Positions 397-27,474 of a stretch of 41,513 bases of DNA are shown here, one piece after another. Position numbers and translations under genes: made by a program. The DNA lies in the IMG/VR virus record IMGVR_UViG_3300045988_114077, positions 1-41,513 of that record, one strand, 5' to 3'. The first letter of the stretch is position 1. Each line of letters begins with the position of its first letter. This DNA comes from a virus. The notes beneath the pieces are model-generated. The model was given only the letters and a program-made list of their open reading frames with translations, ran no database searches and was not told the origin of the DNA.

Positions 397-741
397 AACA
401 TTTGCATCGGGCATTTCGCGGATGGTCTTTTCAAGCGCAAAGTCCACACAAGCCTTCACAAATCCGGCAAAGCTCAGTTTTACGCCGATTTTCAATTTTT
501 TCGTGCAGAATTTCTTAGCATCATCCGTCTTTGTTTTGTCCAGCGCCTCGACCTCGGCGAAGTCGTTAAATCTTCCGTCAGGGCGGACGAGGTCGTAATA
601 GTCCAGCACGTCAAAGGGGTTTTCGCAAAAGTGCATTCCGTTCTTGCAGATTTCTGCTTCCGGTTCCTCAAAAACCGTATTTTCCTGATATTGCTTGTCC
701 TTGCAGACAAGGCCGGGGTTGAATCCTTTGTAGCCTTTCAT
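1..741 (-). CDS. DUF7666-like repeat protein, N-terminal part (the gene continues across the window junction to 41216)
   Basis: ATG at comp(739..741) overlaps the upstream stop as ATGA. N-term MKGYKGFNPGLVCKDKQYQENTVFEEPEAEICKNGMHFCENPFDVLDYYDL resembles, from memory, the N-domain annotated DUF7666. The 9-aa repeats follow. The frame is open to position 1. Confidence 0.8.
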   Translation of the reverse strand, partial: MKGYKGFNPGLVCKDKQYQENTVFEEPEAEICKNGMHFCENPFDVLDYYDLVRPDGRFNDFAEVEALDKTKTDDAKKFCTKKLKIGVKLSFAGFVKACVDFALEKTIREMPDANVGSGDYAQIGSSGDSAQIGSSGYYAKIGSSGYYAQIGSSGDSAKIGSSGYYAKIGSSGDSAKIGSSGYYAKIGSSGDYAQIGSSGDSAKIGSSGDSAQIGSSGDSAQIGSSGDSAQIGSSGDSAQIGSSGDSA

Positions 742-1187
742 TTCTCATTTCCTTTCTTTTTCTGCATCCGATCCCGGTTATATTGCCGCTGGTGCCTCTC
801 ATAGCACTCAAAGCTGCAATAGGTTCTCCGGGAATCGTCTGCCACTTCCTTGCCGCACACAGGGCAGATCTTCACCGGTTTCCCGGCAATGTGGGCCAGG
901 TGGGCGATCTGCCGCTTGCCCTCTCTGGCGCAGCGGTCGGAGCAGTAGGTCCTAAATGGCGGCAGCACCACGTTTCCGCAGACCCTGCATCTGGGCAGTT
1001 GCTTCCGCGGGGCGTTCAGCAGGCTCTCGCACAGCGGTTTGCCCGGCAGCAGCCCCCGCTCCTTGCGGTACATGTACTCGCCGTAGTGCAGACCGTAGGC
1101 TGTGGCGTCCCCGGCGTCGGCGCAGGATGCGCAGCGGCCTTTGCTGTCCAGGTCTTTGACAAGGTGGCAGTAGATGCAGCGTGTCAT
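738..1187 (-). CDS. Multi zinc-ribbon protein (149 aa)
   Basis: Several CxxC pairs and YCSxxC motifs. SD GGAGGTG lies 7 nt upstream of the ATG. The stop overlaps the next start. Confidence 0.7.
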   Translation of the reverse strand: MTRCIYCHLVKDLDSKGRCASCADAGDATAYGLHYGEYMYRKERGLLPGKPLCESLLNAPRKQLPRCRVCGNVVLPPFRTYCSDRCAREGKRQIAHLAHIAGKPVKICPVCGKEVADDSRRTYCSFECYERHQRQYNRDRMQKKKGNEK

Positions 1188-1978
1188 GTAGCATCACCTC
1201 CAAACATCCGGCGGATGGCGGCTTGCTCATCCGCGTCAAGGGGTCTGCGACCTGCGGCATCCGGGGATTTGCCCATGTACGCGGCGGGTTTTTTGGCCAG
1301 ACGGTCAAAAACCACGGACTTCCAATTTGCGGCCATACATTCGTCAATCAGGGCGCAGATTGCGGAATCGGGGTAGGTTTCCAGATATTTGGCGATCTGG
1401 GACAGAAGGGCCTGCTTGCCCTGCTGGGTGTAGCCCTCCCGGCGCTGGGATTTGTAGACAAACCATTGCCGGAGTTTGGCATCCAGGGCGGGAGAGAAAG
1501 TGAAGGGAGAAAAATCAGCGCTTTGCGGTCTGGGTGTGGGTGTGTTGCTGGGCTGAACCGACGGCGCGGGGGTACTCACACACTTGTTAGAGCTATTATA
1601 TATTTCTTTTTCCTTCTCATTTTCCATTGCCTTTTCCTTCTCCTTTTCCTTTTCCTTGGCATCATCGGCATGATTTTCATGCGGCGGTACGTTTGGCATG
1701 CCATCGTATGCCATGGCATCGTTGGTATCATCTTTATTCCAACGCTTGTTTGCGTTGTCGGATTGCTTTTTGCACTTATTGGCATACTTGGCATTATCTC
1801 TGTCGATCTGTCCGCGGAAAACCGGGAAGACGAACCGCTCATTGCCACTGAGGTGCTCGACTTCGCCCGACTTGCTGTATTTTAGGCAAGCCACGAAAAG
1901 TCGACCCCGCTCAGCATCCGTGAGGGGTTCCAAAGCATCAAGATAACTATGATATGCGCAAAAGTATTCAACCGCCAT
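1184..1978 (-). CDS. Replisome-organiser / DnaD-like replication protein
   Basis: Met at 1978 with SD AAGGAGAA. N-term MAVEYFCAYHSYLDALEPLTDAERGRLF, a KE-rich linker, and a C-terminal domain typical of phage organiser proteins. The family call is from memory. Confidence 0.55.
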   Translation of the reverse strand: MAVEYFCAYHSYLDALEPLTDAERGRLFVACLKYSKSGEVEHLSGNERFVFPVFRGQIDRDNAKYANKCKKQSDNANKRWNKDDTNDAMAYDGMPNVPPHENHADDAKEKEKEKEKAMENEKEKEIYNSSNKCVSTPAPSVQPSNTPTPRPQSADFSPFTFSPALDAKLRQWFVYKSQRREGYTQQGKQALLSQIAKYLETYPDSAICALIDECMAANWKSVVFDRLAKKPAAYMGKSPDAAGRRPLDADEQAAIRRMFGGDAT

Positions 1979-2405
1979 GTTTATTCTCCTTGTGCCATTT
2001 TTGGTGACACGGAATACACAGCGTAATTCCGTTTTTGATGTCGTACCTTTTCTCCGGGAAATGCGCATAGGGGAAGATGTGGTGAGCATTGAGCTTTACT
2101 CCTCTCGCCCCGCACATTTGGCAAGTGTAATTATCTCGTTCAAAAACCGATTTGCGCCACGCTTTATATTCTGCGCATCTTCGGCCTTCAACGGAACGCC
2201 GCCTTTCTTTTTCCAGCTCCGGCTTTAACTTTTCAAATACCGAAAGCAATACCGGATTATAAGAATGCAAATTATCCAGCGGAGAAATCCCGTACAGGAG
2301 ATAGGAGCAGATCATATCGTAGGCATCTGCCCGGTCCTGCTTCTTCTTGATGCGGGTAATGGCCTTGAAAAAGCTCTCATAGAATGTGAATTGGGTGCGC
2401 TGCAC
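1968..2405 (-). CDS. HNH endonuclease with an N-terminal extension
   Basis: C-term CQMCGARGVKLNAHHIFPY...NGITLCIPCHQKWH is a classic HNH motif. GTG start directly after the upstream TAA, with GGAGG 8 nt upstream. Confidence 0.8.
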   Translation of the reverse strand: MQRTQFTFYESFFKAITRIKKKQDRADAYDMICSYLLYGISPLDNLHSYNPVLLSVFEKLKPELEKERRRSVEGRRCAEYKAWRKSVFERDNYTCQMCGARGVKLNAHHIFPYAHFPEKRYDIKNGITLCIPCHQKWHKENKHGG

Positions 2406-2633
2406 TTACCGCGCCTCCTTTCTGCCGGGGGCAATGGAATACCGGGAGAAGCTGGTATGCTCACCGTAGCGGTTTTTGCCGCTGACGGTTTCGGAGCGGA
2501 TGGGGACGCCTTGAGCTTTCAGATCCCAGATTCTCGCGCCAAGTCGGTAAATACCGTACTCGGTAATGGCCTCGGCTTGGGTGATAGAGCCGTAGTCCTG
2601 CATATGGCGGAGGATTCTTTCACATTGGGTCAT
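2406..2633 (-). CDS. Small winged-helix/HTH DNA-binding protein
   Basis: MTQCERILRHMQDYGSITQAEAITEYGIYRLGARIWDLKAQG resembles phage wHTH proteins. SD GAGGAGG precedes the ATG at 2633. Confidence 0.6.
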   Translation of the reverse strand: MTQCERILRHMQDYGSITQAEAITEYGIYRLGARIWDLKAQGVPIRSETVSGKNRYGEHTSFSRYSIAPGRKEAR

Positions 2634-2643
2634 AGCAGCCTCC

Positions 2644-3069
2644 TCAGAAGGGGAAGGCTTCATCGTCGCCGGTCAGTTCCGGGTACTCGGCCATGGGGTC
2701 GCTGACAGGGGGGGAATAGTCGGAAGCGGCGGAACCCTGAGAATCCTTCTTGGAGGAGCCGAAATAGATATTATCGGTGACGATCTCGGCGGTACGGCGG
2801 TTGTTGCCGTTCTTGTCTTGCCATGTGCGGATTTGCAGCCTGCCGGAAACAACAGCCATGCTGCCCTTCTGGAAATACTTGGAGACGAAATCCGCGGCTG
2901 CCCTCCAGGCGACGCAGTCAATGAAATCCGTCTCGCGCTTGCCTGTCTGGCTGTCGGCTATGTCCCGCTCCACGGCGAGGGAGAAGTTGGCGCAGGAGAG
3001 GCCGGAATTGGTCTTCCTTAATTCAGGGTCGCGGGTCAAGCGGCCCATTACGGTGATTCTGTTCAGCAT
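2644..3069 (-). CDS. ssb: Single-stranded DNA-binding protein
   Basis: MLNRITVMGRLTRDPELRKT...FIDCVAWR...GRLQIRTWQDKNG is an OB fold, with an acidic tail DDEAFPF. SD AAAGGAGA. Confidence 0.9.
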   Translation of the reverse strand: MLNRITVMGRLTRDPELRKTNSGLSCANFSLAVERDIADSQTGKRETDFIDCVAWRAAADFVSKYFQKGSMAVVSGRLQIRTWQDKNGNNRRTAEIVTDNIYFGSSKKDSQGSAASDYSPPVSDPMAEYPELTGDDEAFPF

Positions 3070-3235
3070 TTTGTAAAATCTCCTTTTTGGTGATTCTCTT
3101 GCCGTCTCGCCGGATGGTGTATCCGGCGGACAGCATGGAAAGCTCGGTTTCCGGGGGATAGCGGATACCGGAATCCGTATACATAAGGGTGCGTCCATCG
3201 GAACCGTGGACGGCGTAGCGGGGCGGGTTACTCAT
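3023..3235 (-). CDS. Small hypothetical protein (70 aa)
   Basis: The ATG overlaps the upstream stop (ATGAGTAA). The 3' end overlaps the ssb start by 47 nt, so the call is uncertain. Confidence 0.4.
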   Translation of the reverse strand: MSNPPRYAVHGSDGRTLMYTDSGIRYPPETELSMLSAGYTIRRDGKRITKKEILQNAEQNHRNGPLDPRP

Positions 3236-4082
3236 ATTCCACCTGCAAGGGGGTAATGGCTGTGAGGTGCTCTGTGGCCCGGCAGTAGGGGCAATGGCCG
3301 CAGCGTGTAGCGGCAATACGTCCGGTTTTGATAGCCTGATAGCGGGGAGCCAGAGCCTCCACATCTGCCATGGCGTTCTGTAGGTCGGCATCGGGAATAA
3401 AGATGGCGAAAATGCGGGGGTGGGTCTCTTTGGTAATTCCGGTCAGGACAAAGGGGGCTTCCCGGCGGACAAGCCGCTGATAGATGGCGCCCTGAATGTC
3501 ATAGCCCCAGTACTGGGCGAAGCTGATGCGGCACTGGGTCTCGTCATTCCACACGGAATCCAGGGAACCCATGTATTTCAGGTCTACGATGATCTGACCG
3601 CCGAAGGGGACCAACTTCTTCACGTCCGGGAACTTCTCGCAGATTTTGCGGACCTGATCGGCGGACAGGAGGCTGTCGACCTTGCACTTGAAGGGGACCC
3701 CGGCAATGCGTCCGGTCTTGACGACCTGATGGCGGCCGGAGAGAAGGGCGTGGATTAAAGGCTCGTTGTCAAGCCGCTGGCAGGCTTCAAAGGCCCGGTT
3801 GAAATCCTCGTAAAACTCGCCGCTCTTCTTGCGAATCTCCGGATGAGCGGCCACCCAGGCGTTGAACTCGCCGGAAAAGTAAGCATCCACGAAGGAGCCT
3901 AAGAGAAGCGCCTTTGTGGGGGTGGGGGTGTAATCCCCTCGCAGCTCGGCCATTGCCGCGGCCTCGCACTCGCGGAATGCCTTGAACTGGGAATTGCTGA
4001 GATATGCCCAGTTGGCTTCACGGGAATAGTAATTCTCATTCGTGATCGGGAGCAGCTTCTTCTGTAGGGCCGGTCTGGACAT
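3228..4082 (-). CDS. PD-(D/E)XK (RecB/Cas4-like) exonuclease
   Basis: IVDLKYM and QGAIY motifs, plus a C-terminal Cys cluster CGHCPYC. It sits next to ssb in a recombination module. Confidence 0.75.
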   Translation of the reverse strand: MSRPALQKKLLPITNENYYSREANWAYLSNSQFKAFRECEAAAMAELRGDYTPTPTKALLLGSFVDAYFSGEFNAWVAAHPEIRKKSGEFYEDFNRAFEACQRLDNEPLIHALLSGRHQVVKTGRIAGVPFKCKVDSLLSADQVRKICEKFPDVKKLVPFGGQIIVDLKYMGSLDSVWNDETQCRISFAQYWGYDIQGAIYQRLVRREAPFVLTGITKETHPRIFAIFIPDADLQNAMADVEALAPRYQAIKTGRIAATRCGHCPYCRATEHLTAITPLQVEYE

Positions 4083-4584
4083 CCTCCGCTACCTCCTTTC
4101 CGGTCTGGCGAACCATGGCGCAATTGAAGCACAGGGGCACACCGAATTTTTTTGCGGTGTAATGGGCCATGTACTCGGCGGAGCGGCCATTGGCGGGGGT
4201 GATGGGGCCGCCGCAATCGGAACAGCGGGCGGCGGGGGTCTCCTTGGGTTTCCGGGGCCGGACGCGGACGGCAGAAACCAGCTCCCCGAATGCCTTGATA
4301 TTGTGCTCGATATAGAGCTGGACGCGGACGCCTTTCCAGTCCTCAAAGTAAGGGGAACCGGCTACCTTCTCGATGGCCTTGGAGCGGGCCACGTTCAGGA
4401 TCATGGGTTTCAGGTTCTCGGCAAAGTGGACCACGGCTTTCTGGGATTTGCCATCGGTGGTGGTGACGGTCTCGGACTGATTGACGGAAGCAATGGTCGC
4501 TACCTTCTCTTCGCCCTCGTTAAAATCCGCCTCGCCCAGATAGTTGGGGTCGGAGACAATTTTTTTCCAGTGGGTCTTTTCCAT
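4036..4584 (-). CDS. Conserved phage protein with a C-terminal zinc ribbon
   Basis: 182 aa. SD GAGGAGG. C-term CSDCGG...CFNC. Function unknown. Confidence 0.65.
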   Translation of the reverse strand: MEKTHWKKIVSDPNYLGEADFNEGEEKVATIASVNQSETVTTTDGKSQKAVVHFAENLKPMILNVARSKAIEKVAGSPYFEDWKGVRVQLYIEHNIKAFGELVSAVRVRPRKPKETPAARCSDCGGPITPANGRSAEYMAHYTAKKFGVPLCFNCAMVRQTGKEVAEDVQTGPTEEAAPDHE

Positions 4585-4586
4585 GG

Positions 4587-4895
4587 TTAGTCCTCCTCGG
4601 TTTCTGGTTCTATGGGGTCATTTGGTTCTTCTATGTAGGCAATGCAGTCGGGGCACCAGAATTCGTCTCGCTTGGGAAAATAGAATCTAGTGTCGGCAGT
4701 GATCGGCTCGCCGCAGTTGGCGCAGCGGGGGAAGGTACGAAGGTAACGCTCCCATCTGGTTTCTCGCTGAAGCTCCTGATAGGCGGGGTCACAGGAAATG
4801 GGTAATTTCACTTGATTTTGGCCCTTTCTTCTGATATAATGAGGGTGCTCTGCTGAGAGAGCATACATTGGGTTAGACGTTCCTTTCTGCATCAT
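4587..4895 (-). CDS. Zinc-ribbon hypothetical protein
   Basis: CANCGEPI...CPDC. The ATG overlaps the upstream stop (ATGA). Confidence 0.6.
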   Translation of the reverse strand: MMQKGTSNPMYALSAEHPHYIRRKGQNQVKLPISCDPAYQELQRETRWERYLRTFPRCANCGEPITADTRFYFPKRDEFWCPDCIAYIEEPNDPIEPETEED

Positions 4896-5200
4896 CCCCT
4901 TTCTTCTCCGGCCTCTGCGGTAACAGAGGCCGGAATTTTTTTGCGTTCCCGGTAAGACCTCTGGTAAGCAAGGCGGGCTTCCCGGTTGGTGCGGTAGTAT
5001 TCCCGCTGGTATGCCCGGCGGGCGTCCGCTTTTTCCGGGTGCGTCAAACGATACTTGCGGACACGGTAAGCCTCTTCCTCTTTGCTTCTGGGGTGCTGCC
5101 TGCCGTACTCGGCACGGCGGGCGTTACGTTCGGCGCGGTGGGCGTAATAATAGCGGAGTTCCCGGGAGCGTTCTTCCTCCGGAATCAGTTTACGCGCCAT
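4892..5200 (-). CDS. Arg/Tyr-rich repeat protein
   Basis: Internal Met MARKLIPEE. Repeated R..AY.REYYR.NRE-type motifs. Confidence 0.5.
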   Translation of the reverse strand: MARKLIPEEERSRELRYYYAHRAERNARRAEYGRQHPRSKEEEAYRVRKYRLTHPEKADARRAYQREYYRTNREARLAYQRSYRERKKIPASVTAEAGEERG

Positions 5201-5432
5201 AGTAGTAAGTGACCACGAAGGGGGAACGGGTGCGGTGGTTGCGGTGGACGGCCTCAAACAGGTCGGCGTTGTCCTTGTCAAATGCGGAATCAGCGGCGAG
5301 AAGACCTTCCTTCAGGGCGGCGTTCTCTTTTTTCAGCCCTTCGATTTTGGCGTTCTGGGCCTCGATCATGCGGCGGGCCTTGCGGCACTGGTCGGCCATA
5401 AAGCGATAGCGGGCGAGTTCATCGGGATTCAT
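5190..5432 (-). CDS. Coiled-coil hypothetical protein (80 aa)
   Basis: SD AAAGGAGG 7 nt upstream of the ATG at 5432. Confidence 0.6.
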   Translation of the reverse strand: MNPDELARYRFMADQCRKARRMIEAQNAKIEGLKKENAALKEGLLAADSAFDKDNADLFEAVHRNHRTRSPFVVTYYYGA

Positions 5433-5643
5433 TTTGGGTTACCTCCTTTAACCATTCTTCAAATTCTTTCCGGTAAATGCGATAGGCACGGCGGCCTGTT
5501 CTGCTGACGTTCCAGGCGTGGATGAAGCGGATTTCTCCGGATTCGGTCATGTTGACCAGAGACGCCCAGGAGATCCGGCAGCCAATGGAGCGGAGAGCCG
5601 CGAGGACTTCCTTTTGCGTCATAAAGATGGGGTCATTCTTCAT
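5419..5643 (-). CDS. Excisionase-family / MerR-like HTH protein (74 aa)
   Basis: MKNDPIFMTQKEVLAALRSIGCRISWASLVNMTESGEIRFIH...YRIYRKEFEEWL. SD AAGGAGG. Only the C-terminal part of tracked ORF 5419..6141 looks real. Confidence 0.6.
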   Translation of the reverse strand: MKNDPIFMTQKEVLAALRSIGCRISWASLVNMTESGEIRFIHAWNVSRTGRRAYRIYRKEFEEWLKEVTQNESR

Positions 5644-5806
5644 GGGGCTGGTCCTCCTTTTTGGCGGGGGATACCATAGCGGCCATGTCGGCCATGCCGG
5701 ACAGATAAGTGTTCGCTTTTTCCAGAGCTGCGGCCCGGAGAGGGGCGGGAATGGAAGCGGCGGTCTTCTGGATCTGCTTGGCAAGGTTCTTTTCGGCTTC
5801 AGGCAT
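5633..5806 (-). CDS. Small hypothetical protein (57 aa)
   Basis: My own translation: MPEAEKNLAKQIQKTAASIPAPL... SD GGAGGAGG upstream. The stop overlaps the next start. It is below the ORF-track cutoff. Confidence 0.45.
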   Translation of the reverse strand: MPEAEKNLAKQIQKTAASIPAPLRAAALEKANTYLSGMADMAAMVSPAKKEDQPHEE

Positions 5807-5963
5807 TTTTCTTCACCTCCTCCTGCTGGACGGTAACGACTTTGATTTTCAGCCAGTCGGCTTTGTCGGGGGAGGCCAGGAGTTTTTCGTTCTCCCGGTC
5901 GATGGCCTCGGCCTCTTCCCTGGAAACTTCCCGGCCCTGACAATAGTAATGTTTGCTTTTCAT
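5799..5963 (-). CDS. Small hypothetical protein (54 aa)
   Basis: My own translation: MKSKHYYCQGREVSREEAEAIDRENEKLL... Weak SD AAAGGAAA. Overlaps the next start by 8 nt. Confidence 0.4.
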   Translation of the reverse strand: MKSKHYYCQGREVSREEAEAIDRENEKLLASPDKADWLKIKVVTVQQEEVKKNA

Positions 5964-6010
5964 TGGATTTCGTTTCCTTTCTTGCGTTTTCGTTGGGATT
6001 GTGATACATT

Positions 6011-6057
6011 GGGTGGCGGGGGCCGGAATCGAACCGGCCCTTGTGGGGTGGATTACT
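6011..6057 (-). other. tRNA 3'-half-like fragment (T arm plus the 3' acceptor strand)
   Basis: Minus strand reads ...GCCGG TTCGATT CCGGC CCCCGCC A. No matching 5' acceptor strand (GGCGGGG) lies upstream. Confidence 0.5.
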
Positions 6058-6256
6058 TTTCCTCCGGGTAGACGGCGTTGAATTCGTCCAGGGCGCGGCA
6101 GGCCGAGGAAACGTCTGCTTCCGCACTCTTCTTTTCCTCACCGCTTACAAATTCTGCGAACATCTCAAACGAAATTTCAGCGGCATCCTTATGGATTTTA
6201 AGCGAATTGCGAATGATCTCGATGGTTTCCGGGGAGAGGCTGGGGATGGTATTCAT
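6053..6256 (-). CDS. Hypothetical protein, paralog family member 1 (67 aa)
   Basis: Starts in the conserved cassette GGAGGAATAAACCAATG. The C-term ...LDEFNAVYPEEK resembles the end of the next gene. Confidence 0.6.
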   Translation of the reverse strand: MNTIPSLSPETIEIIRNSLKIHKDAAEISFEMFAEFVSGEEKKSAEADVSSACRALDEFNAVYPEEK

Positions 6257-6260
6257 TGGT

Positions 6261-6737
6261 TTATTCCTCCTTTTCGGGGTAGGCTTCGTTGAACTCGTTC
6301 AGATCCTGGCGGGCCTGTTCAATCAATCTGAATGCATCAAAACGGGCCTGAATCAATTTTTTGTCGTCGGGGAGAAGCTGGAGAAGCTCGCCTACGCTCG
6401 CAGCCGCTTTTCTTAAAGAATCTACGTACAGGCCAAGGGCCTTGCGAATGCGGTTGGCGGTATCATCGGAGAGGTGCGGGGCGGCGGGGGCCTCAATGGG
6501 GGTGGGGCTGGGGTTGCCTTGCTTTTTCGCTTCCTCCTTCAGCTCGGAGAGGGCGCTGTTCAGCTCTTTGGCGTCCCGATCGATCTGGATGATCTTGTCA
6601 ACGTCTTCCGGCGGGAAACAGAGAGACGCGGGCGACCGGGAGCAATTGCCGCTGACGATGCGGAATTTCTCGGCAATCAGGCGGGCTTTCTCCCTGCCAA
6701 TCAGGGAGCGCAGGAACAGGTTGGTTTCGGGTTTCAT
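6261..6737 (-). CDS. Hypothetical protein, paralog family member 2 (158 aa)
   Basis: Met at 6737 in the same cassette. C-term ...DLNEFNEAYPEKEE. Confidence 0.6.
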   Translation of the reverse strand: MKPETNLFLRSLIGREKARLIAEKFRIVSGNCSRSPASLCFPPEDVDKIIQIDRDAKELNSALSELKEEAKKQGNPSPTPIEAPAAPHLSDDTANRIRKALGLYVDSLRKAAASVGELLQLLPDDKKLIQARFDAFRLIEQARQDLNEFNEAYPEKEE

Positions 6738-6741
6738 TGGT

Positions 6742-7146
6742 TTATTCCTCCTTCGAAGTGTTGGAAATCTTTTCTTCCGCTGCCTTATAGGCGAAGCGGA
6801 GGGCTTCCAGATAGGGGTCATAGGGCGTTTGCTTGCGCATGGTCATCCGTTCGTGGTAGCTTATCAAGCCGCGGAGAATGGAGAGGTAAAATTCCTCGTT
6901 CGGGACGAATTTTACCGATGGAACAAAATTGGATTGTGCTTTAGCATGAGAACAATCGTCGGGGGTGAGTGATTTCAGAAGTTCCGTCATTTGCCCAACG
7001 AAAAAACGTGAATCGCACAGCTGCATCAGCTTGTTTGCATTTGCGAGGTCGCATCCTTTTTTCAAGGTACTCTCTATTTCGAGCTGAATGCGAGCGCGCT
7101 CTTTCGCGGCGTAGTTGGATAAGATTTGGATTTCTTGACTGGTCAT
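6742..7146 (-). CDS. Hypothetical protein, third gene with the same start cassette (134 aa)
   Basis: Met at 7146 in the identical cassette. Ends ...SKEE. Confidence 0.6.
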   Translation of the reverse strand: MTSQEIQILSNYAAKERARIQLEIESTLKKGCDLANANKLMQLCDSRFFVGQMTELLKSLTPDDCSHAKAQSNFVPSVKFVPNEEFYLSILRGLISYHERMTMRKQTPYDPYLEALRFAYKAAEEKISNTSKEE

Positions 7147-7195: not shown

Positions 7196-7681
7196 ATGAA
7201 GAAATTCTTTGAGACGATTGGTTTTTGGGGGCTTATGCTGCTGTGCGGGTATTTGGTTGGGCTTGCGCTGGATGCAATTCATGCAGATATGACGTTCATC
7301 GGTTTTGTGTTCAGTGCACTTATTTACTCTCTGGTATGGGAACACAAGCAAATTAAGAAAGACTATGTAAGCAATGACTTTTATGAGGAGCAACTAGCAC
7401 GGTGCAGGCTGAAATATGAGCGAAACATCGGGAATCGGTTAGACCTTTTTGCAATTAAAAAGACTTGTAATGTGACTGGGGAACTCGTTTCCGTCTATTT
7501 CCATCCGTATAAGGACGATGGAAAGCGGATGCTGAAGTTTAACGGCTGCGGGATTCGGGACGAATGCGAGGGCTGCGAGAAATGTGTAAACGAATCTTTT
7601 GAGATTGTGCATAAGTTGAACACCGGAGAAGAAACGTTTGAATCTACGCAGGCATTCAAAGTCAAGAGTTCCGATGCTTGA
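7196..7681 (+). CDS. Membrane protein (two predicted TM helices plus a Cys-containing soluble domain); moron candidate
   Basis: MKKFFETIGFWGLMLLCGYLVGLAL...FIGFVFSALIYSLVW, then CGIRDECEGCEKC. Clearly more AT-rich than its flanks. Opposite in orientation to the surrounding early genes. Confidence 0.65.
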   Translation: MKKFFETIGFWGLMLLCGYLVGLALDAIHADMTFIGFVFSALIYSLVWEHKQIKKDYVSNDFYEEQLARCRLKYERNIGNRLDLFAIKKTCNVTGELVSVYFHPYKDDGKRMLKFNGCGIRDECEGCEKCVNESFEIVHKLNTGEETFESTQAFKVKSSDA

Positions 7682-7690
7682 AAGTGGTTT

Positions 7691-8032
7691 CCCGTTAGCG
7701 CACAAATGTTCCGATTGCCAAAATTAACCAGTAATGGTAGAATGGCGTTTGTGCCGGTGCTGCGCAACACAGGCACGTACTTACACGGCGGAGGTGATGA
7801 AAGTTGCAAAGCTTTTTGACCGAAACCGTGATTCCACGCGGCCTACCAGAGCGGTGAGGCGCTGACGTGCGAGCAGACCGCTAAACAGCGCTTGCCAATG
7901 AGAGAGGGAATGGCGTTTTCCTCCGGCTTAGCCCAGGGTAAATGGGACGTTGGTCATTGGTTGGAATCGGTGTCTGTAGGGCCCACCAGGTAAACGCCGC
8001 CTGGTGGGTTCCTCCTTTTGTGCGCTAACGGG
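7691..8032. ncRNA. ORF-free structured element closed by a 16-bp perfect stem; class and strand unknown
   Basis: cccgttagcgcacaaa (7691-7706) pairs with tttgtgcgctaacggg (8017-8032). Internal 9-bp hairpin at 7982-8008, a long-range helix 7711-7722/7958-7971, and a pseudoknot-compatible helix pair at 7850-7891. Confidence 0.45.
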
Positions 8033-8035
8033 TTG

Positions 8036-8059
8036 TTAATAAGGAATAAATCTTATTAA
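8036..8059. promoter_or_regulatory. Inverted repeat TTAATAAG-N8-CTTATTAA at about +2 to +25 of the leftward promoter (operator or 5' hairpin)
   Basis: Perfect 8-bp arms read directly from the sequence. Confidence 0.5.
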
Positions 8060-8067
8060 CTAAGCAT

Positions 8068-8096
8068 AATATAGCACTACATATTTATAATGTCAA
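8068..8096 (-). promoter_or_regulatory. Sigma-70-type promoter firing leftward (TTGACA-17-TATATT)
   Basis: The reverse complement reads TTGACA ttataaatatgtagtgc TATATT. It is divergent from the repressor promoter. Confidence 0.65.
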
Positions 8097-8128
8097 GCAT
8101 TATTTCATACATGAGTAATATTTTTTTC

Positions 8129-8157
8129 TTGCTTTTTTACGCTGAGCGTGATATGAT
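8129..8157 (+). promoter_or_regulatory. Promoter of the XRE repressor gene (TTGCTT-17-TATGAT)
   Basis: Hexamers and spacing read directly. SD AAAGGAGG and the ATG at 8182 follow. Confidence 0.55.
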
Positions 8158-8181
8158 GCAAAACGAAAGGAGGTGTGACAA

Positions 8182-8577
8182 ATGGAAGAAACCATAAACC
8201 ACCGTATCGAACAGGTATGGGAGGAATCCAAACTCACAAAATCGGCATTTTCGGAAAAGATTGGCATATCTCAGCCGTATCTTAGTCGGCTTTGCAAGGA
8301 GGCTTTAACCCCCAGTGACCGCACGATCTCCGACATCTGCCGGGTCTTCCGGGTCAACGAGGATTGGCTGCGGAACGGAACCGGGGCAAAGTACCGGAAG
8401 AAGCCCAGAGCGGAAGAACTGGGCGAAATCTTTGCCGATCTGGAAGTTGACGACACGGTGAAGGCCCGGTTTATCAGGACGCTGGCGGACTTCCCGGAGG
8501 AGTATTTCGCCCAGGCACTGGAAATGGCCCGGAAGTTTTTGGAGCGGTACGCCCAGGAAGAGGGGCCGGGAGCATAA
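8182..8577 (+). CDS. XRE-family HTH repressor (CI-like)
   Basis: LTKSAFSEKIGISQPYLSRLCKE is an HTH. The position is divergent from a strong promoter. Confidence 0.8.
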   Translation: MEETINHRIEQVWEESKLTKSAFSEKIGISQPYLSRLCKEALTPSDRTISDICRVFRVNEDWLRNGTGAKYRKKPRAEELGEIFADLEVDDTVKARFIRTLADFPEEYFAQALEMARKFLERYAQEEGPGA

Positions 8578-8620: not shown

Positions 8621-8749
8621 TTATTCCTTTCTCGCGGCCCGCTTCTCGACGGTTATCATAGTGACACGGAGCCATTTCAGGGGCATTTTCTCCAACAGGG
8701 GCAGGATGGCGGCAATCAGGGCGGCGCGTTCTTCTCGTTCGTTTTCCAT
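8621..8749 (-). CDS. Small hypothetical protein (42 aa)
   Basis: My own translation: MENEREERAALIAAILPLLEKMPLKWLRVTMITVEKRAARKE. SD AAAGGAG 7 nt upstream. It is below the ORF-track cutoff. Confidence 0.4.
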   Translation of the reverse strand: MENEREERAALIAAILPLLEKMPLKWLRVTMITVEKRAARKE

Positions 8750-9102: not shown

Positions 9103-9660
9103 ATGCAGGATGGGTTAGCATTGTACGCGGAAATGCAGGAACGGGCGGCCAAGCTGCAGGAAGCCATGAAAGCGGAGAAGCAAAGGCAGGGGAAAACAAA
9201 CCAGCAGATGATCGACGAAAGCGGGGTGGCCCGGTCAACGGTGAATAACTACTTTGCCGGAGTGCTGAACGGGCCGGGGCTGGTGCAGACGGCGGCGCTG
9301 TGCAAGGTGCTGGGGATGTCCATTGACAATGCCATGGGGCTGTCCTCTGCCGCTGATGATGACGCGGCAAAGCTGCGGGCGGAGCTGGATCATAAGGAAG
9401 AGGTTATACAGATACTTGACGGCGGCGTGAAGGCCAGAAGGCCGTTGATCTATGGGCTGCTGGGGCTGTGCGCCTTGCTGGGCACGGCGCTGATGATGTA
9501 TATCATACTGGACGCCAGCAGGCCGGATGCCGGCCTGATCCGCGCGGATGGCGTGTCCCCTATCCTGATTGCATTTTGTCTTGCCGGTGTGTGTGGCGGG
9601 CTGTGGACGGCGTGCAGGGCGGTGAAAGACAGGGTAACGCGGAGACATGGGGAACGGTAA
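9103..9660 (+). CDS. Membrane-anchored XRE-type HTH protein
   Basis: QQMIDESGVARSTVNNYFAG is an HTH. A coiled segment and two hydrophobic helices (LIYGLLGLCALLGTALMMYIIL, ILIAFCLAGVCGGLW) follow. Confidence 0.7.
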   Translation: MQDGLALYAEMQERAAKLQEAMKAEKQRQGKTNQQMIDESGVARSTVNNYFAGVLNGPGLVQTAALCKVLGMSIDNAMGLSSAADDDAAKLRAELDHKEEVIQILDGGVKARRPLIYGLLGLCALLGTALMMYIILDASRPDAGLIRADGVSPILIAFCLAGVCGGLWTACRAVKDRVTRRHGER

Positions 9661-14093: not shown

Positions 14094-14169
14094 GTGTGTG
14101 TAGCACAACTGGCGGTGCGCTGAATGCTATGTTCAGAGGGTGAGAGTTCGACCCTCTCCACACACGCCA
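14094..14169 (+). tRNA. tRNA-like gene, 76 nt with encoded CCA, anticodon position CUA (amber-suppressor-like), non-canonical anticodon loop
   Basis: Hand fold: acceptor gtgtgtg/cacacac (7 bp), D arm gcac-aactggcg-gtgc, anticodon arm ctgaa-tgCTAtg-ttcag, variable loop agggt, T arm gagag-ttcgacc-ctctc, discriminator g, CCA. Position 33 is G and position 37 is U, both atypical. Confidence 0.7.
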
Positions 14170-26225: not shown

Positions 26226-26246
26226 GTTACAAACCCGTTACAAACC
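26226..26246 (+). repeat. Two more direct GTTACAAACC repeats (P' arm)
   Basis: Copies at 26226-26235 and 26237-26246. The second overlaps the integrase stop. Confidence 0.6.
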
Positions 26247-27341
26247 GTGAGAGAATATGTCTTTCTGGTTGATAGCGTTCAGAATGTCGGATGGGTCCAG
26301 GTGGGTGTAAAATTTATCGGTAGTAGACAGGTCGGAATGACCTACCATGCGGCGGAGAAGCTGAGGGTTGACGCCTGCTTTTGTGGCCTTGGTGATGAAG
26401 GTATGGCGGCAGTCATAGGGCGTGTAGGCCGGAAGGTTCAGCTCCTGCATGAGTTCCTTCCATTCCCGCTTGACGTAGTTTGCATAGGTGTGGTTCCCGC
26501 TGTAGCCGTCTATGAGTTTCGGTTTCCCGGATGCCGCGGAAAGGATTTCATGATACGCGGAAAGCCCAAGCTGGGAAACGGCAATGACACGGTTTTTTCC
26601 TGCTTTTGTCTTGCTGCCCCCAACAAAATAGGTAGTGGTGCAATCTGCCGTAGCCGCCTGAAACAGTTCGTTTGGGCGGCAGCCGGTGGCAAGCAGGATC
26701 AGGGCGATTTTTGCGGCTGGGTTTTCGGACTTCTTCATTGCGTCTATCGCCTCATCAGGGAAGACAAGTCCGTCACTCTTCTGCGCTGCGGCAATGGTAC
26801 AGTAGCGTGCGCGGTTGACCTGCTGGATTTCCTCCAATACAGCCCAGTCGGAAAGCTGCCCGAAAAGCTGCAACACCTTTTCACAGGTGGACTTGGACTT
26901 CCCTTCCTGCTCCAGGCGGATGATAACAGCTTGGAATTCAGAGCGCCGGATGGTACGAAATTTCCGGTCGTGCAGTTCTTTGCAGTTGGAAAAGGCGGTT
27001 TTGTATGAGCCTTGGCCGTGGACGCTTATCGTCCGGTCGTGCTCTGGCTTCCATGCTTCGTAAATCTGTTTGAAGGTCCAGTTATACTTTTCTGTGATTG
27101 TGGCGTCTGTGAGGCGCTCAAGGGCTTTGACGGCATCTGTGCGGGTTTCATATGTGCCAATCAGTTGGCCGCCCTTGCGAACCACCCAGGGCTTGCGGCG
27201 TGAACCGGAGAGTTTTGAGATGTTGCCGGTTCCATTGGGACGTTTGCGGGTCTTTCGGGGCTGGGAAAGCTGCTTCTTTCCGCAATAAGGGCAGAAGACA
27301 GCATTCTCCGGCAGCTCCTTCTTGCATTTCTGACAGAGCAT
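26238..27341 (-). CDS. int: Tyrosine integrase with an N-terminal zinc ribbon
   Basis: MLCQKCKKELPENAVFCPYCGKK N-terminus. C-term CRHTFITKA...MVGHSDLSTTDKFYTHL gives the HxxR and Y catalytic motifs. Confidence 0.9.
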   Translation of the reverse strand: MLCQKCKKELPENAVFCPYCGKKQLSQPRKTRKRPNGTGNISKLSGSRRKPWVVRKGGQLIGTYETRTDAVKALERLTDATITEKYNWTFKQIYEAWKPEHDRTISVHGQGSYKTAFSNCKELHDRKFRTIRRSEFQAVIIRLEQEGKSKSTCEKVLQLFGQLSDWAVLEEIQQVNRARYCTIAAAQKSDGLVFPDEAIDAMKKSENPAAKIALILLATGCRPNELFQAATADCTTTYFVGGSKTKAGKNRVIAVSQLGLSAYHEILSAASGKPKLIDGYSGNHTYANYVKREWKELMQELNLPAYTPYDCRHTFITKATKAGVNPQLLRRMVGHSDLSTTDKFYTHLDPSDILNAINQKDIFSHGL

Positions 27342-27397
27342 ATTGGGGTTCCTTTCTGTGTGTGTGGCTGCACGGTAATACAGCGGCTTGCAACATG

Positions 27398-27426
27398 AGT
27401 GTAACACGGTCAGAAACAGATGTAAA
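27398..27426 (-). promoter_or_regulatory. Candidate integrase promoter TTTACA-17-TACACT
   Basis: Read from the reverse complement. Confidence 0.4.
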
Positions 27427-27440
27427 TATGGAAAAGCGTA

Positions 27441-27474
27441 CAAAAATCCCGGTCTGCGGTGGGCAGGCCGGGAC
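27441..27474 (-). terminator. Intrinsic terminator after the 1951-aa gene
   Basis: Minus strand: tcccgg N15 ccggga, then tttttg. Confidence 0.55.

Follow-up and report, generated by a model that had tools for sequence, protein, structure and literature searches.

Lambda OOP, P22 sar and P1/P7 c4 are untranslated RNAs of phage immunity regions, each with its own promoter and terminator and each running opposite to a lytic transcript (PMC12197685). These RNAs are about 70-80 nt long and have a coding region or a ribosome-binding site as their target, and the c4 types set heteroimmunity independently of the protein repressor (PMC12197685). In coliphages 186 and P2 the lytic and lysogenic promoters stand face to face and are subject to transcriptional interference; the two promoters of 186 are separated by 62 bp, and the gene read from the lysogenic one is that of the repressor (PMC5001618). 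Morons are autonomous promoter-gene-terminator insertions in phage genomes (PMC3594210).

The locus described here lies in a window of 41,513 nt, meaning the whole stretch of DNA that was analyzed, and it resembles OOP, sar and c4 in carrying, opposite a lytic transcript, what appears to be an RNA that is not translated and has a promoter and a terminator of its own (PMC12197685). The original prediction had called it a non-coding, structured and conserved element of the immunity region, and that much is borne out. Judged from its sequence, the body of this cassette is probably a self-contained plus strand RNA gene with a promoter, a start, a folded RNA and a terminator. The features of the region are the following.

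7691-7706, no strand assigned: 5' arm of the inverted repeat, CCCGTTAGCGCACAAA, 8 nt upstream of the plus strand -35 box
7715-7743, plus strand: putative promoter of the RNA gene, TTGCCA-17-TGgTAGAAT, sigma-A-type with an extended -10; 10 of 12 consensus matches, TG present
7751-8021, plus strand: predicted structured RNA body of type W, about 270 nt, start near 7751; predicted ends
7804-7857, plus strand: candidate 17-codon ORF read from the sequence, TTG at 7804 to TGA at 7857, with Shine-Dalgarno GGAGG at 7790-7794
7979-8011, plus strand: predicted intrinsic terminator hairpin, 13 pairs (8 G-C, 2 G·U)
8017-8032, no strand assigned: 3' arm of the inverted repeat, TTTGTGCGCTAACGGG, about 29 nt downstream of the inferred leftward early start on the minus strand
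8035-8060, no strand assigned: AT-rich palindrome GTTAATAAG-N8-CTTATTAAC, probable operator of the repressor, spanning +1 to +26 on the leftward transcript
8068-8096, minus strand: leftward early promoter P_L, 11 of 12 consensus matches, conserved in all relatives
8129-8157, plus strand: probable repressor-gene promoter TTGCTT-17-TGaTATGAT, read from the sequence and below the scan threshold in the window
8182-8577, plus strand: XRE/cI-type repressor gene (Pfam HTH_3; PHROG transcriptional repressor)

The arms and an ORF-poor folded interior are seen again in over 25 related contigs of gut phages, and the nearest genome matches are Clostridiales and Oscillospiraceae MAGs. Among the source runs are SRR1761699, SRR25571506 and ERR10754220. 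Two bodies that cannot be aligned with each other, W (about 270 nt, the type in the window) and T2 (about 340 nt), share the same arms, promoter and terminator tail. Across 13 relatives the -35 box of the RNA gene reads TTGCMA, while the TG and the -10 positions T1, A2, A4 and T6 are invariant; the changes that do occur are confined to the spacer and the weak hexamer positions, which is a promoter-like pattern. The body thus has directly upstream of it, at the level of consensus, the promoter of a bacterial sRNA unit, and at its 3' end the same-strand intrinsic terminator of such a unit. The latter had been noticed as a 9-bp hairpin at 7982-8008, which is indeed there and grows to 13 pairs when G·U pairs are counted; it is followed by CTCCTTTTGT and scores as a plus strand intrinsic terminator. 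Its U-rich tail (8012-8021) overlaps the beginning of the 3' arm and in W is broken up by C residues. In both W and T2 bodies a 5' hairpin sits at the inferred transcription start.

Folding of the W body gave a minimum free energy of -106.6 kcal/mol on the plus strand versus -87.7 on the minus strand. With the arms included the values were -147 kcal/mol (z -4.7) and -130 (z -4.0), respectively; with the arms removed the z-score of the W body was only -1.5 and that of T2 -1.7, which is modestly better than shuffles. The single near-identical variant of W (L012) differs by three changes, one of which turns a G·U into a G-C pair in a predicted stem (7892) and the other two of which fall in a loop. 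The smaller structures proposed for the interior are of mixed value. The two helices of a candidate pseudoknot (7850-55/7877-82 and 7859-64/7886-91) are complementary as described, the pseudoknot itself being a prediction, and the 11-nt direct repeat at 7740 and 7908 is present, yet near chance, with its first copy overlapping the -10 box. A second long-range helix (7711-7730 with 7951-7970) is weaker: the segments are only 70% complementary, they overlap the plus strand -35 box, and the T2 relatives have no counterpart.

Covariation among relatives, which had been proposed as a check on the helices, can be assessed in the T2 body, where compensatory changes support them. The plus strand fold of T2 contains 8 pairs with double changes and has 98.2% of its cells paired compared to about 40-46% when the partners are slid, and its covariation score is above 500 of 500 shuffles and all slid controls; the alignment holds 11 distinct sequences and the covariation comes from about three lineages. 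The consensus energy is -136.6 kcal/mol on the plus strand (covariation term -2.25) versus -117.8 on the minus strand, where more pairs are broken and the covariation term almost vanishes. There are 75 interior G·U cells, plus 40 in the terminator, that become A·C on the minus strand. The T2 terminator has 15 pairs with invariant G·U and is 100% paired on the plus strand versus 75.5% on the minus strand; because of these G·U pairs we read the terminator as plus strand specific.

That W is a diverged homologue of T2 is not supported, as the covariance model of the T2 body scores 3 bits or less on it with filters off, and an inverted T2 was also rejected for lack of reverse-strand similarity. 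The two bodies do have three short collinear motifs in common (GGAGGTGA; CCGAAAC..TGATTC; GGCCTACCAnAG), each at chance level by BLAST (E 0.12-6).

The leftward promoter that had been predicted, TTGACA-17-TATATT at 8096-8068 on the minus strand, is present with 11 of 12 matches and with hexamers conserved in relatives. The promoter scan listed no other good minus strand promoter between P_L and the first leftward gene (7146). The first early gene of both L050 and L052 begins 30 nt past the cassette, so P_L transcripts must cross it. The RNA gene is convergent with and antisense to P_L and points in the same direction as the repressor gene; like a cis-antisense RNA it lies opposite to, and overlaps, the lytic transcript that P_L would produce. 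The XRE repressor shares 30-35% identity with cI-like repressors from phages of C. difficile. A further HTH protein of the phage, the 185-aa HTH-TM protein, is encoded at 9103-9660. Its probable promoter has a counterpart in L016 (TTGCAA-17-TAGAAT) that the promoter scan does list, and the sequence of the operator palindrome varies with the HTH type of the repressor, not with the cassette type.

Given that P_L fires into the element, the original prediction saw it as the first product of the early lytic transcript, and this is not supported: the RNA lies on the opposite, plus strand with its own promoter and terminator, and the conserved plus-specific G·U pairs and the better plus strand folding energy also speak against the claim. 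A related possibility is that the minus strand early leader is itself a functional RNA closed by the 16-bp stem, either a put/EAR-like antiterminator or a processed immunity RNA. It can draw on the position of P_L, on the fact that the minus strand transcript always carries both arms, on an arm change in L063 and L064 that leaves a G·U pair on the minus strand only, and on a minus strand minimum energy structure that also closes with the arms. We still consider it improbable. A put/EAR-like element should have its conserved structure on the strand made from the regulated promoter, and here that strand has the weaker consensus, worse by 19 kcal/mol, with the many conserved G·U pairs of the interior helices and the terminator turned into A·C. 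Additionally, this explanation leaves the plus strand promoter and terminator unexplained, and a leader element is not needed to read the early operon, since it is absent from relatives with the same P_L and operator. A role in processive antitermination is unlikely for the same reason, as close relatives have the same promoter and operator without the cassette.

The plus strand transcript could alternatively encode a micro-protein of 17-24 amino acids, or serve as a leader or attenuator that feeds the repressor gene in a P_RE-like manner. The original statement that there is no credible ORF is correct for ORFs longer than 45 amino acids; below that size the 17-codon ORF with a Shine-Dalgarno sequence exists, although it is not favored. 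Its T2 counterpart has GGAGG, 10 nt, ATG and 24 codons and is intact in 11 of 11 variants, even across a TGA>TAA change of the stop. In both bodies GGAGG stands 9-10 nt ahead of the start codon at a similar distance from the RNA start, and the motif CCGAAAC..TGATTC is in-frame in both. The ORF region is also the best-conserved part of T2 (9 of 75 columns variable), and the C-interrupted tail of the W terminator makes some read-through toward XRE plausible. Between L016 and L022, however, the T2 ORF differs by 5 non-synonymous changes, K>E and H>D among them, with 0 synonymous ones, and both the stop-codon and the K>E changes are compensated by their RNA-helix partners (100-171 and 190-218). 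All variable sites in the ORF are either unpaired or compensated in the RNA structure. The W and T2 peptides are not hydrophobic and have no similarity beyond four residues, the motifs common to W and T2 are individually at chance level, and the Shine-Dalgarno sequence is buried inside a conserved helix. The XRE gene, for its part, is expressed from its own promoter in relatives that have no cassette. Taken with this evidence a coding or leader function appears quite improbable. A type I toxin-antitoxin was rejected as well, as the candidate peptides, MQSFLTETVIPRGLPER and MTGAAGTIAETLIQALMPKHRSSV, do not resemble membrane peptides.

The two arms form a perfect 16-bp inverted repeat, as had been claimed, where about 0.006 such perfect pairs (spacing of up to 600 nt) would be expected by chance in the whole window. 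No third copy occurs in the 41.5 kb, allowing up to 3 mismatches. Both arms are outside the RNA gene, so the 16-bp "closing stem" is not part of the plus strand RNA. Only a transcript that spans the cassette carries the two together, and the P_L early leader always does. Where a plus strand gene exists upstream, read-through from it also carries both arms. Among 13 distinct relatives the arms are either invariant or compensated: in the L022 lineage G8>C and A12>T are both matched by changes in the opposite arm, and the G8>A of L063/L064 would be A·C if read on the plus strand and is G·U on the minus strand. In sum, the arms show two double changes that compensate each other and a further change that gives G·U on the minus strand alone. 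The compensatory changes could equally come from concerted evolution of two DNA sites.

The arms may instead be two binding sites of one DNA-binding regulator, one near -52 of the RNA promoter and the other near +36 of P_L as a roadblock or loop anchor, with the complementarity as a by-product of their inverted orientation. Their spacing is constant, with 8 nt to the -35 box and 29-33 nt to the P_L start, and their sequence stays the same despite differing repressor HTH types and RNA bodies. Additionally, in L081, which has no cassette, the 3' arm is kept alone and without a partner at the P_L-proximal position, which suggests either that an arm is of value alone (e.g. as a protein-binding site) or that it is a mere deletion scar. 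Against two regulator sites stand the lack of a candidate protein and of internal dyad symmetry in the arm. The L022 lineage, with the same two positions changed in both arms, is explained more simply by pairing or concerted evolution, and the relatives of the other operator type keep all the neighboring regulators while both arms are absent. On balance we find this rather unlikely.

The cassette is an optional element of a small clade of temperate gut phages. It is absent from L071-74 and L081, and among these relatives are close ones with the same P_L and operator; those of the other operator type have no arms and keep all neighboring regulators. Being dispensable in relatives, the cassette cannot be a core part of the switch. 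Its flanks vary, with six different left neighbors and three operator types on the right. It is not tied to the neighboring ORF161, as L022, L050 and L052 carry the cassette without this ORF. Similarly, the body type does not track the HTH type of the repressor (L053 and L079 pair the window-type HTH with a T2 body), and W and T2 assort independently of it.

These observations also bear on a DNA-level reading, in which the arms would mark the two ends of a cassette that is mobile or can be exchanged, either MITE-like or as recombination anchors, with the RNA gene as cargo in the manner of a non-coding moron. The MITE alternative raised originally fits the presence/absence polymorphism in close relatives, whose right boundary coincides precisely with the outer end of the 3' arm, and does not fit the lack of a target-site duplication, the single locus or the lack of dispersed copies among the contigs scanned. 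Two unrelated bodies framed by identical arms, the variable flanks, and a promoter and terminator of its own, as morons have (PMC3594210), would all be natural for such a cassette. The flanks differ at every junction type with no direct repeat, the slot and orientation are constant with only two arm copies in the window, scans of IMG/VR and JGI contigs gave no copies outside the same context, and no transposase is present. The GC content of 58% resembles the 55.5% of the phage, and the solo arm in L081 is not the remnant expected of excision between inverted sites. We give mobility as the purpose of the arms a small but real chance. By contrast, an inverton, in which a recombinase would flip the segment between the arms so that promoter and terminator point leftward and gate the early operon, is hardly credible. 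The 16-bp inverted repeats do enclose a promoter and a unidirectional terminator, and the flipped terminator would halt P_L transcripts; however, all assembled complete cassettes (13 distinct sequences from many samples) are in one orientation, there is no adjacent invertase, and the only integrase of the window is at 26238-27443. The arms are also shorter than, and unlike, known invertase sites.

Database searches gave the locus no known identity. Comparison with Rfam, as suggested originally, matched no family (Rfam 15, 4227 models): there were 0 matches in the window at the gathering threshold and 0 in the region 7400-8300 at E<=10, while the T2 locus of L016 gave only a 13-bit snoRNA chance match outside the body. 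ARAGORN found no tRNA or tmRNA in the element, and neither INPHARED phages nor PLSDB plasmids gave a blastn match to W or T2. Scanning IMG/VR with the arm 16-mer gave six single-arm matches, all by chance in unrelated sequence, and no W-type body motif was found there; pattern scans for arm, promoter and body in IMG/VR and JGI contigs recovered same-context copies only. Some further identities were also discarded. A resemblance to RNase P, SRP, tmRNA or a group I intron has no model match; an integron attC reading of GTTAGC...GCTAAC has the core sites in the wrong order and with the wrong consensus; and for the stop-codon recoding suggested by a CUA-anticodon tRNA, TAG read-through merges no ORFs.

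Of the roles originally listed, that of an antisense or immunity-type RNA fits best, as a proposed function. Our full account is a lysogen-expressed countertranscript cassette whose arms clamp the leader, to which we assign a probability of roughly 45%. The cassette lies about 30 nt downstream of where the leftward early-lytic transcript starts, and its RNA would be fully complementary to the P_L leader. While the XRE repressor shuts P_L, the RNA could be made from the prophage, and the RNA together with its transcription may form a second, RNA-level brake on the early operon, either that of the prophage itself or that of a phage that enters carrying the same type of cassette. Such a brake might act by pairing with the leader, leading to RNase III-type cleavage or attenuation, and by the collision of converging polymerases. 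Once P_L fires, it would read across the RNA promoter and occlude it. W and T2 in identical frames would confer two specificities at the RNA level, and these would reassort without regard to the specificity of the repressor. The arms would most plausibly pair on the leader and clamp the antisense segment into a closed domain, and their helix is a possible processing site just upstream of the ribosome-binding site of the first early gene. Taken separately, the countertranscript function is a tentative proposal, somewhat short of even odds, and we hold the pairing role of the arms with the same reserve.

The multi-domain size of 270-340 nt is far above that of known phage countertranscripts and hints at another function, possibly in trans. 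The cassette could then be a new kind of module, an exchangeable ncRNA gene bracketed by inverted repeats in an early leader, whose RNA, with W and T2 as two unrelated alleles, does more than antisense pairing and whose arms form a helix on the opposite strand. Such an RNA might specify superinfection immunity independently of the protein repressor, or it might be a trans-acting protein-binding or catalytic RNA, and the arms might pair over a long range on the transcript of the opposite strand, in a helix that serves processing or insulation. This broader proposal is unlikely, with a minor share of our belief.

The lysis-lysogeny switches of phages from gut Clostridia have hardly been studied, and the two bodies add two RNA families that Rfam does not contain. 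If the countertranscript account is true, these phages would have a second layer of immunity, based on RNA and reassorting separately from the repressor. Large structured RNAs whose genomic logic is clear are rare, and this would be one of them, convergent with the early promoter and bracketed by a long-range helix that only the transcript of the opposite strand contains. If the cassette is a passive non-coding moron, its interest would be modest.

Compared with known systems, the reassortment of W and T2 independent of the XRE HTH type is similar to that of the c4 types relative to the protein repressor. Unlike OOP, sar and c4, the cassette RNA is 270-340 nt long and multi-domain, and the leader it faces is not translated; 16-bp inverted repeats bracket it, some close relatives do without it, and its regulatory effect is a proposal. 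As in 186 and P2, convergent promoters stand at the lysis-lysogeny switch and the strong lytic one would read over the weaker one on the lysogenic side. However, the inner promoter of the cassette would make a non-coding RNA, lies about 320 nt from P_L, and has its transcript stopped by a terminator about 40 nt short of the P_L start, unlike in 186. The cassette is MITE-like in its perfect 16-bp terminal inverted repeats, small size, lack of a long ORF and polymorphism ending at the repeat, and unlike MITEs in having no target-site duplication and in being found as a single copy at a single locus in one orientation, with no dispersed copies. With ROOL and GOLLD, from Firmicute prophages and gut or rumen Gram-positives, it has in common an ORF-free multi-helix RNA, while it differs in matching neither their sequence nor their structure, in being half their size or less and in its fixed position in the switch region. 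Like a moron, it is an independent unit that is present or absent among otherwise collinear relatives, oriented for expression from a repressed prophage, in a slot where variable cargo ORFs of low GC content are found too. Unlike morons, its payload would be an RNA instead of a protein, its GC content is not deviant, and it is flanked by inverted repeats.

The element (7691-8032) lies in a temperate phage genome between the leftward early genes and an AT-rich region with divergent promoters, beyond which is the repressor gene. The terminase, portal and integrase are encoded elsewhere in the window. The features that matter here are as follows.

738-7146, - strand: leftward early genes, including those for a DUF3799 exonuclease and a DUF6291 primosomal-like protein
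7196-7681, + strand: orphan ORF of 161 aa, low in GC, directly before the element
7715-7743, + strand: predicted promoter TTGCCA, 17 nt, TGgTAGAAT; 10/12 matches with an extended -10 TG
7804 (TTG) to 7857 (TGA), + strand: candidate ORF of 17 aa in this window's body type (W), GGAGG before the start
8035-8060: AT-rich palindrome just past the P_L start; its sequence follows the repressor HTH type
8096-8068, - strand: P_L, the leftward early-lytic promoter; 11/12 consensus matches, kept in every relative
8182-8577, + strand: XRE/cI-type repressor, beyond the AT-rich divergent-promoter region

The sequence features first noted for the element were confirmed for the most part. Positions 8017-8032 are the exact reverse complement of the 5' arm (CCCGTTAGCGCACAAA, 7691-7706). 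By chance about 0.006 perfect 16-bp inverted pairs within 600 nt would be expected in the whole window, which has no third copy of the arm when up to 3 mismatches are allowed. Also present are the leftward TTGACA-17-TATATT promoter, the 9-bp hairpin and the direct repeat of 11 nt. The second long-range helix fares worse, being just 70% complementary and not kept in relatives. The element matches no Rfam model, even at E<=10, and no tRNA or tmRNA was found inside it. The 356-nt stretch including the arms folds at -147 kcal/mol (z -4.7) on the + strand and -130 kcal/mol (z -4.0) on the - strand.

Relatives were gathered from protein look-ups (exact or nearly so), pattern scans and a search of the repressor family. 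More than 25 contigs from human-gut metagenomes (ENA, Logan, IMG/VR) hold the element, in 13 distinct sequences. What aligned relatives have in common is the two arms plus the stretches just inside them, of about 45 nt at the 5' arm and about 10 nt at the 3' arm; the interior comes in two mutually unalignable versions. The W body is found in this window and in contig L012 (342 nt arm to arm), and all remaining relatives have the T2 body (406-412 nt), which has no Rfam match either. By BLAST the two bodies share only three short collinear motifs, each at chance level, and a T2 covariance model that gives 300 bits on T2 copies gives <=3 bits on W with filters off. The sole local match of that model on W is CUACCAGA (7843-7850, present once); two separate T2 hairpins (L016, A3 columns 201-208 and 308-315) have CUACCAUA as a loop sequence. 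This loop may be a common recognition motif or chance.

The original prediction had the element as the product of the leftward transcript, which appears to be the wrong strand. The conserved 45 nt next to the 5' arm read as the + strand promoter, in which TTGCMA, the TG and -10 positions T1, A2, A4 and T6 are the same in all relatives, the changes seen falling in the spacer and at weak hexamer positions. The 9-bp hairpin scores as an intrinsic terminator of the + strand, with 13 pairs and CTCCTTTTGT after them; its T2 equivalent has 15 pairs followed by TTTTCCTTTTGT. Both bodies open with a hairpin exactly at the expected start, 7-8 nt past the -10 box. The T2 consensus on the + strand (RNAalifold, 11 distinct sequences) has 120 pairs and an energy of -136.6 kcal/mol (covariation term -2.25), compared to -117.8 kcal/mol (covariation term -0.46) and more broken pairs for the same sequences on the - strand. 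On the + strand 98.2% of cells are paired, against 40-46% with slid partners, the covariation score exceeds all 500 shuffles, and double changes occur in 8 pairs (100-171, 190-218, 199-210, 232-259, 295-334, 366-392 and two in the arms). G·U cells on the + strand, which would be A·C on the - strand, number 75 in the interior and 40 in the terminator; this count is biased by a structure predicted on the + strand, but the asymmetry holds since the independent - strand prediction confirms it. The W body gives -106.6 kcal/mol on + versus -87.7 on -, and of the three differences between L012 and the window one replaces a G·U by a G-C pair within a predicted stem, the other two being in a hairpin loop. 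Without arms the bodies have z of only -1.5 (W) and -1.7 (T2), so the case rests on promoter and terminator, strand asymmetry and T2 covariation rather than on stability. We conclude that the body is probably a gene on the + strand for an RNA of about 270 nt (W) or about 340 nt (T2).

About 45 nt into this RNA, GGAGG stands 9-10 nt before a start codon in both bodies, and the T2 ORF (ATG plus 24 codons) is intact in all variants, including one with a TGA>TAA change, as a micro-protein or leader peptide would have it. However, L016 and L022 differ in this ORF by 5 non-synonymous and 0 synonymous changes, and the stop change and a K>E each come with a compensating partner in an RNA helix. Every variable site is unpaired or compensated, and we therefore rank the coding reading low.

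The 16-bp repeat was thought to be a closing stem, and this role can be dropped, as both arms fall outside the RNA gene: 8 nt separate the 5' arm from the -35 box, and the 3' arm starts inside the terminator U tract. Both arms co-occur only on transcripts that span the cassette, namely the P_L leader always and read-through of an upstream + strand gene where one exists. In L022, L050 and L052 the arms are CCCGTTACCGCTCAAA / TTTGAGCGGTAACGGG, with two double changes that leave all 16 pairs intact. In L063 and L064 (two samples, two different sequences) only the 5' arm has changed, by G8>A, giving A·C on + and G·U on -, and L053 has one mismatch at the inner arm end. The very few changes seem to favour an arm helix in the - strand leader, a pattern that concerted evolution of two DNA sites would equally produce.

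Upstream of the first leftward gene there is no good leftward promoter apart from P_L, whose transcript would start near 8061. The palindrome at 8035-8060 is presumably the operator of the repressor. Past it, the P_L transcript would run antisense through the entire cassette, making the RNA gene and P_L convergent and the RNA complementary over its full length to the P_L leader. In L050 and L052 the ribosome-binding site of the first early gene lies 20 nt beyond the cassette, thus early expression requires transcription across it. Two relatives have a GC-rich hairpin, CGGGCGGG-TTGC-CCCGCCCG, between leader and first early gene (L022 3416-3437, L081 222-243); a T-rich run follows the L022 copy on the + strand, which makes it terminator-like, facing the early genes. 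The repressor family (window 8182-8577, proteins P0003-P0122) shows modular shuffling, with at least 5 N-terminal HTH (recognition-helix) types joined to two or three types of C-terminal domain. Every related contig has a called 42-aa ORF (8621-8749 in the window, - strand) that is convergent with the repressor gene, irrespective of cassette or HTH type.

Not all relatives carry the cassette. L071-74 lack both it and the arms, though they share an L016-type operator and a homologous upstream 143-aa ORF, and their right-hand sequence aligns from the first base past the 3' arm. L081 has the window-type operator and repressor without the cassette, keeping the P_L-proximal arm alone, followed by 21 nt, the GC hairpin and the first early gene. 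This solo 16-mer (265-280) sits beside the operator, with no partner in the 264 nt available to its left. In L034, L057 and L059 other + strand cargo ORFs fill the slot. To its left the cassette borders on any of six different genes, which may lie on either strand. Body type is independent of repressor type: the window HTH is combined with W (window), T2 (L053-56, L079-80) and no cassette (L081), and the L016 HTH with T2 or none. A MITE-like insertion had been offered as an alternative on account of the terminal inverted repeats, but no target-site duplication, second locus or opposite orientation was found in the window or its relatives.

The slot of the 161-aa ORF serves as a bay for cargo, antisense to the early leader, and is filled in relatives by other + strand ORFs of 143, 171, 263 and 277 aa. 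The ORF has a GC content of 43.8% versus 55.5% for the phage, and its 161-aa protein has an N-terminal membrane helix, a Cys-rich C-terminus and only two homologous clusters among 5.8 billion proteins. L081 also carries a RAGATH-5 RNA between two leftward genes (2686-2738, - strand; RF02685, 60.3 bits, gathering score 50), with no counterpart in the window at gathering threshold. ARAGORN places a tRNA with anticodon CUA ('tRNA-Pyl', amber-suppressor type) at 14094-14169 (+), shortly before the terminase gene; stop-codon recoding is not indicated, as reading TAG as sense neither merges nor lengthens ORFs.

An autonomous, optional RNA-gene unit set into the early leader is the best-supported description of the cassette. 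The original prediction had the kind right (a non-coding RNA, possibly an immunity RNA), and not the strand or the role of the stem. In the mechanism we favour, the RNA would be a lysogen-expressed countertranscript that reinforces early-operon repression, or adds immunity against the early operon, through RNA pairing and convergent transcription, and on the leader RNA the arms would serve as a clamp around the inserted segment. Given the dispensability and large fold, a trans-acting role outside the switch is a serious possibility. Rfam has neither RNA family, though elements of this kind (phage-borne countertranscripts or non-coding morons) are already known. The cassette resembles OOP, sar and c4 in logic (PMC12197685), the face-to-face promoters of 186 (PMC5001618) and, in modularity, morons (PMC3594210), but differs from all of these in the size and complexity of its RNA, its inverted-repeat bracket, its position opposite an untranslated leader and its dispensability.
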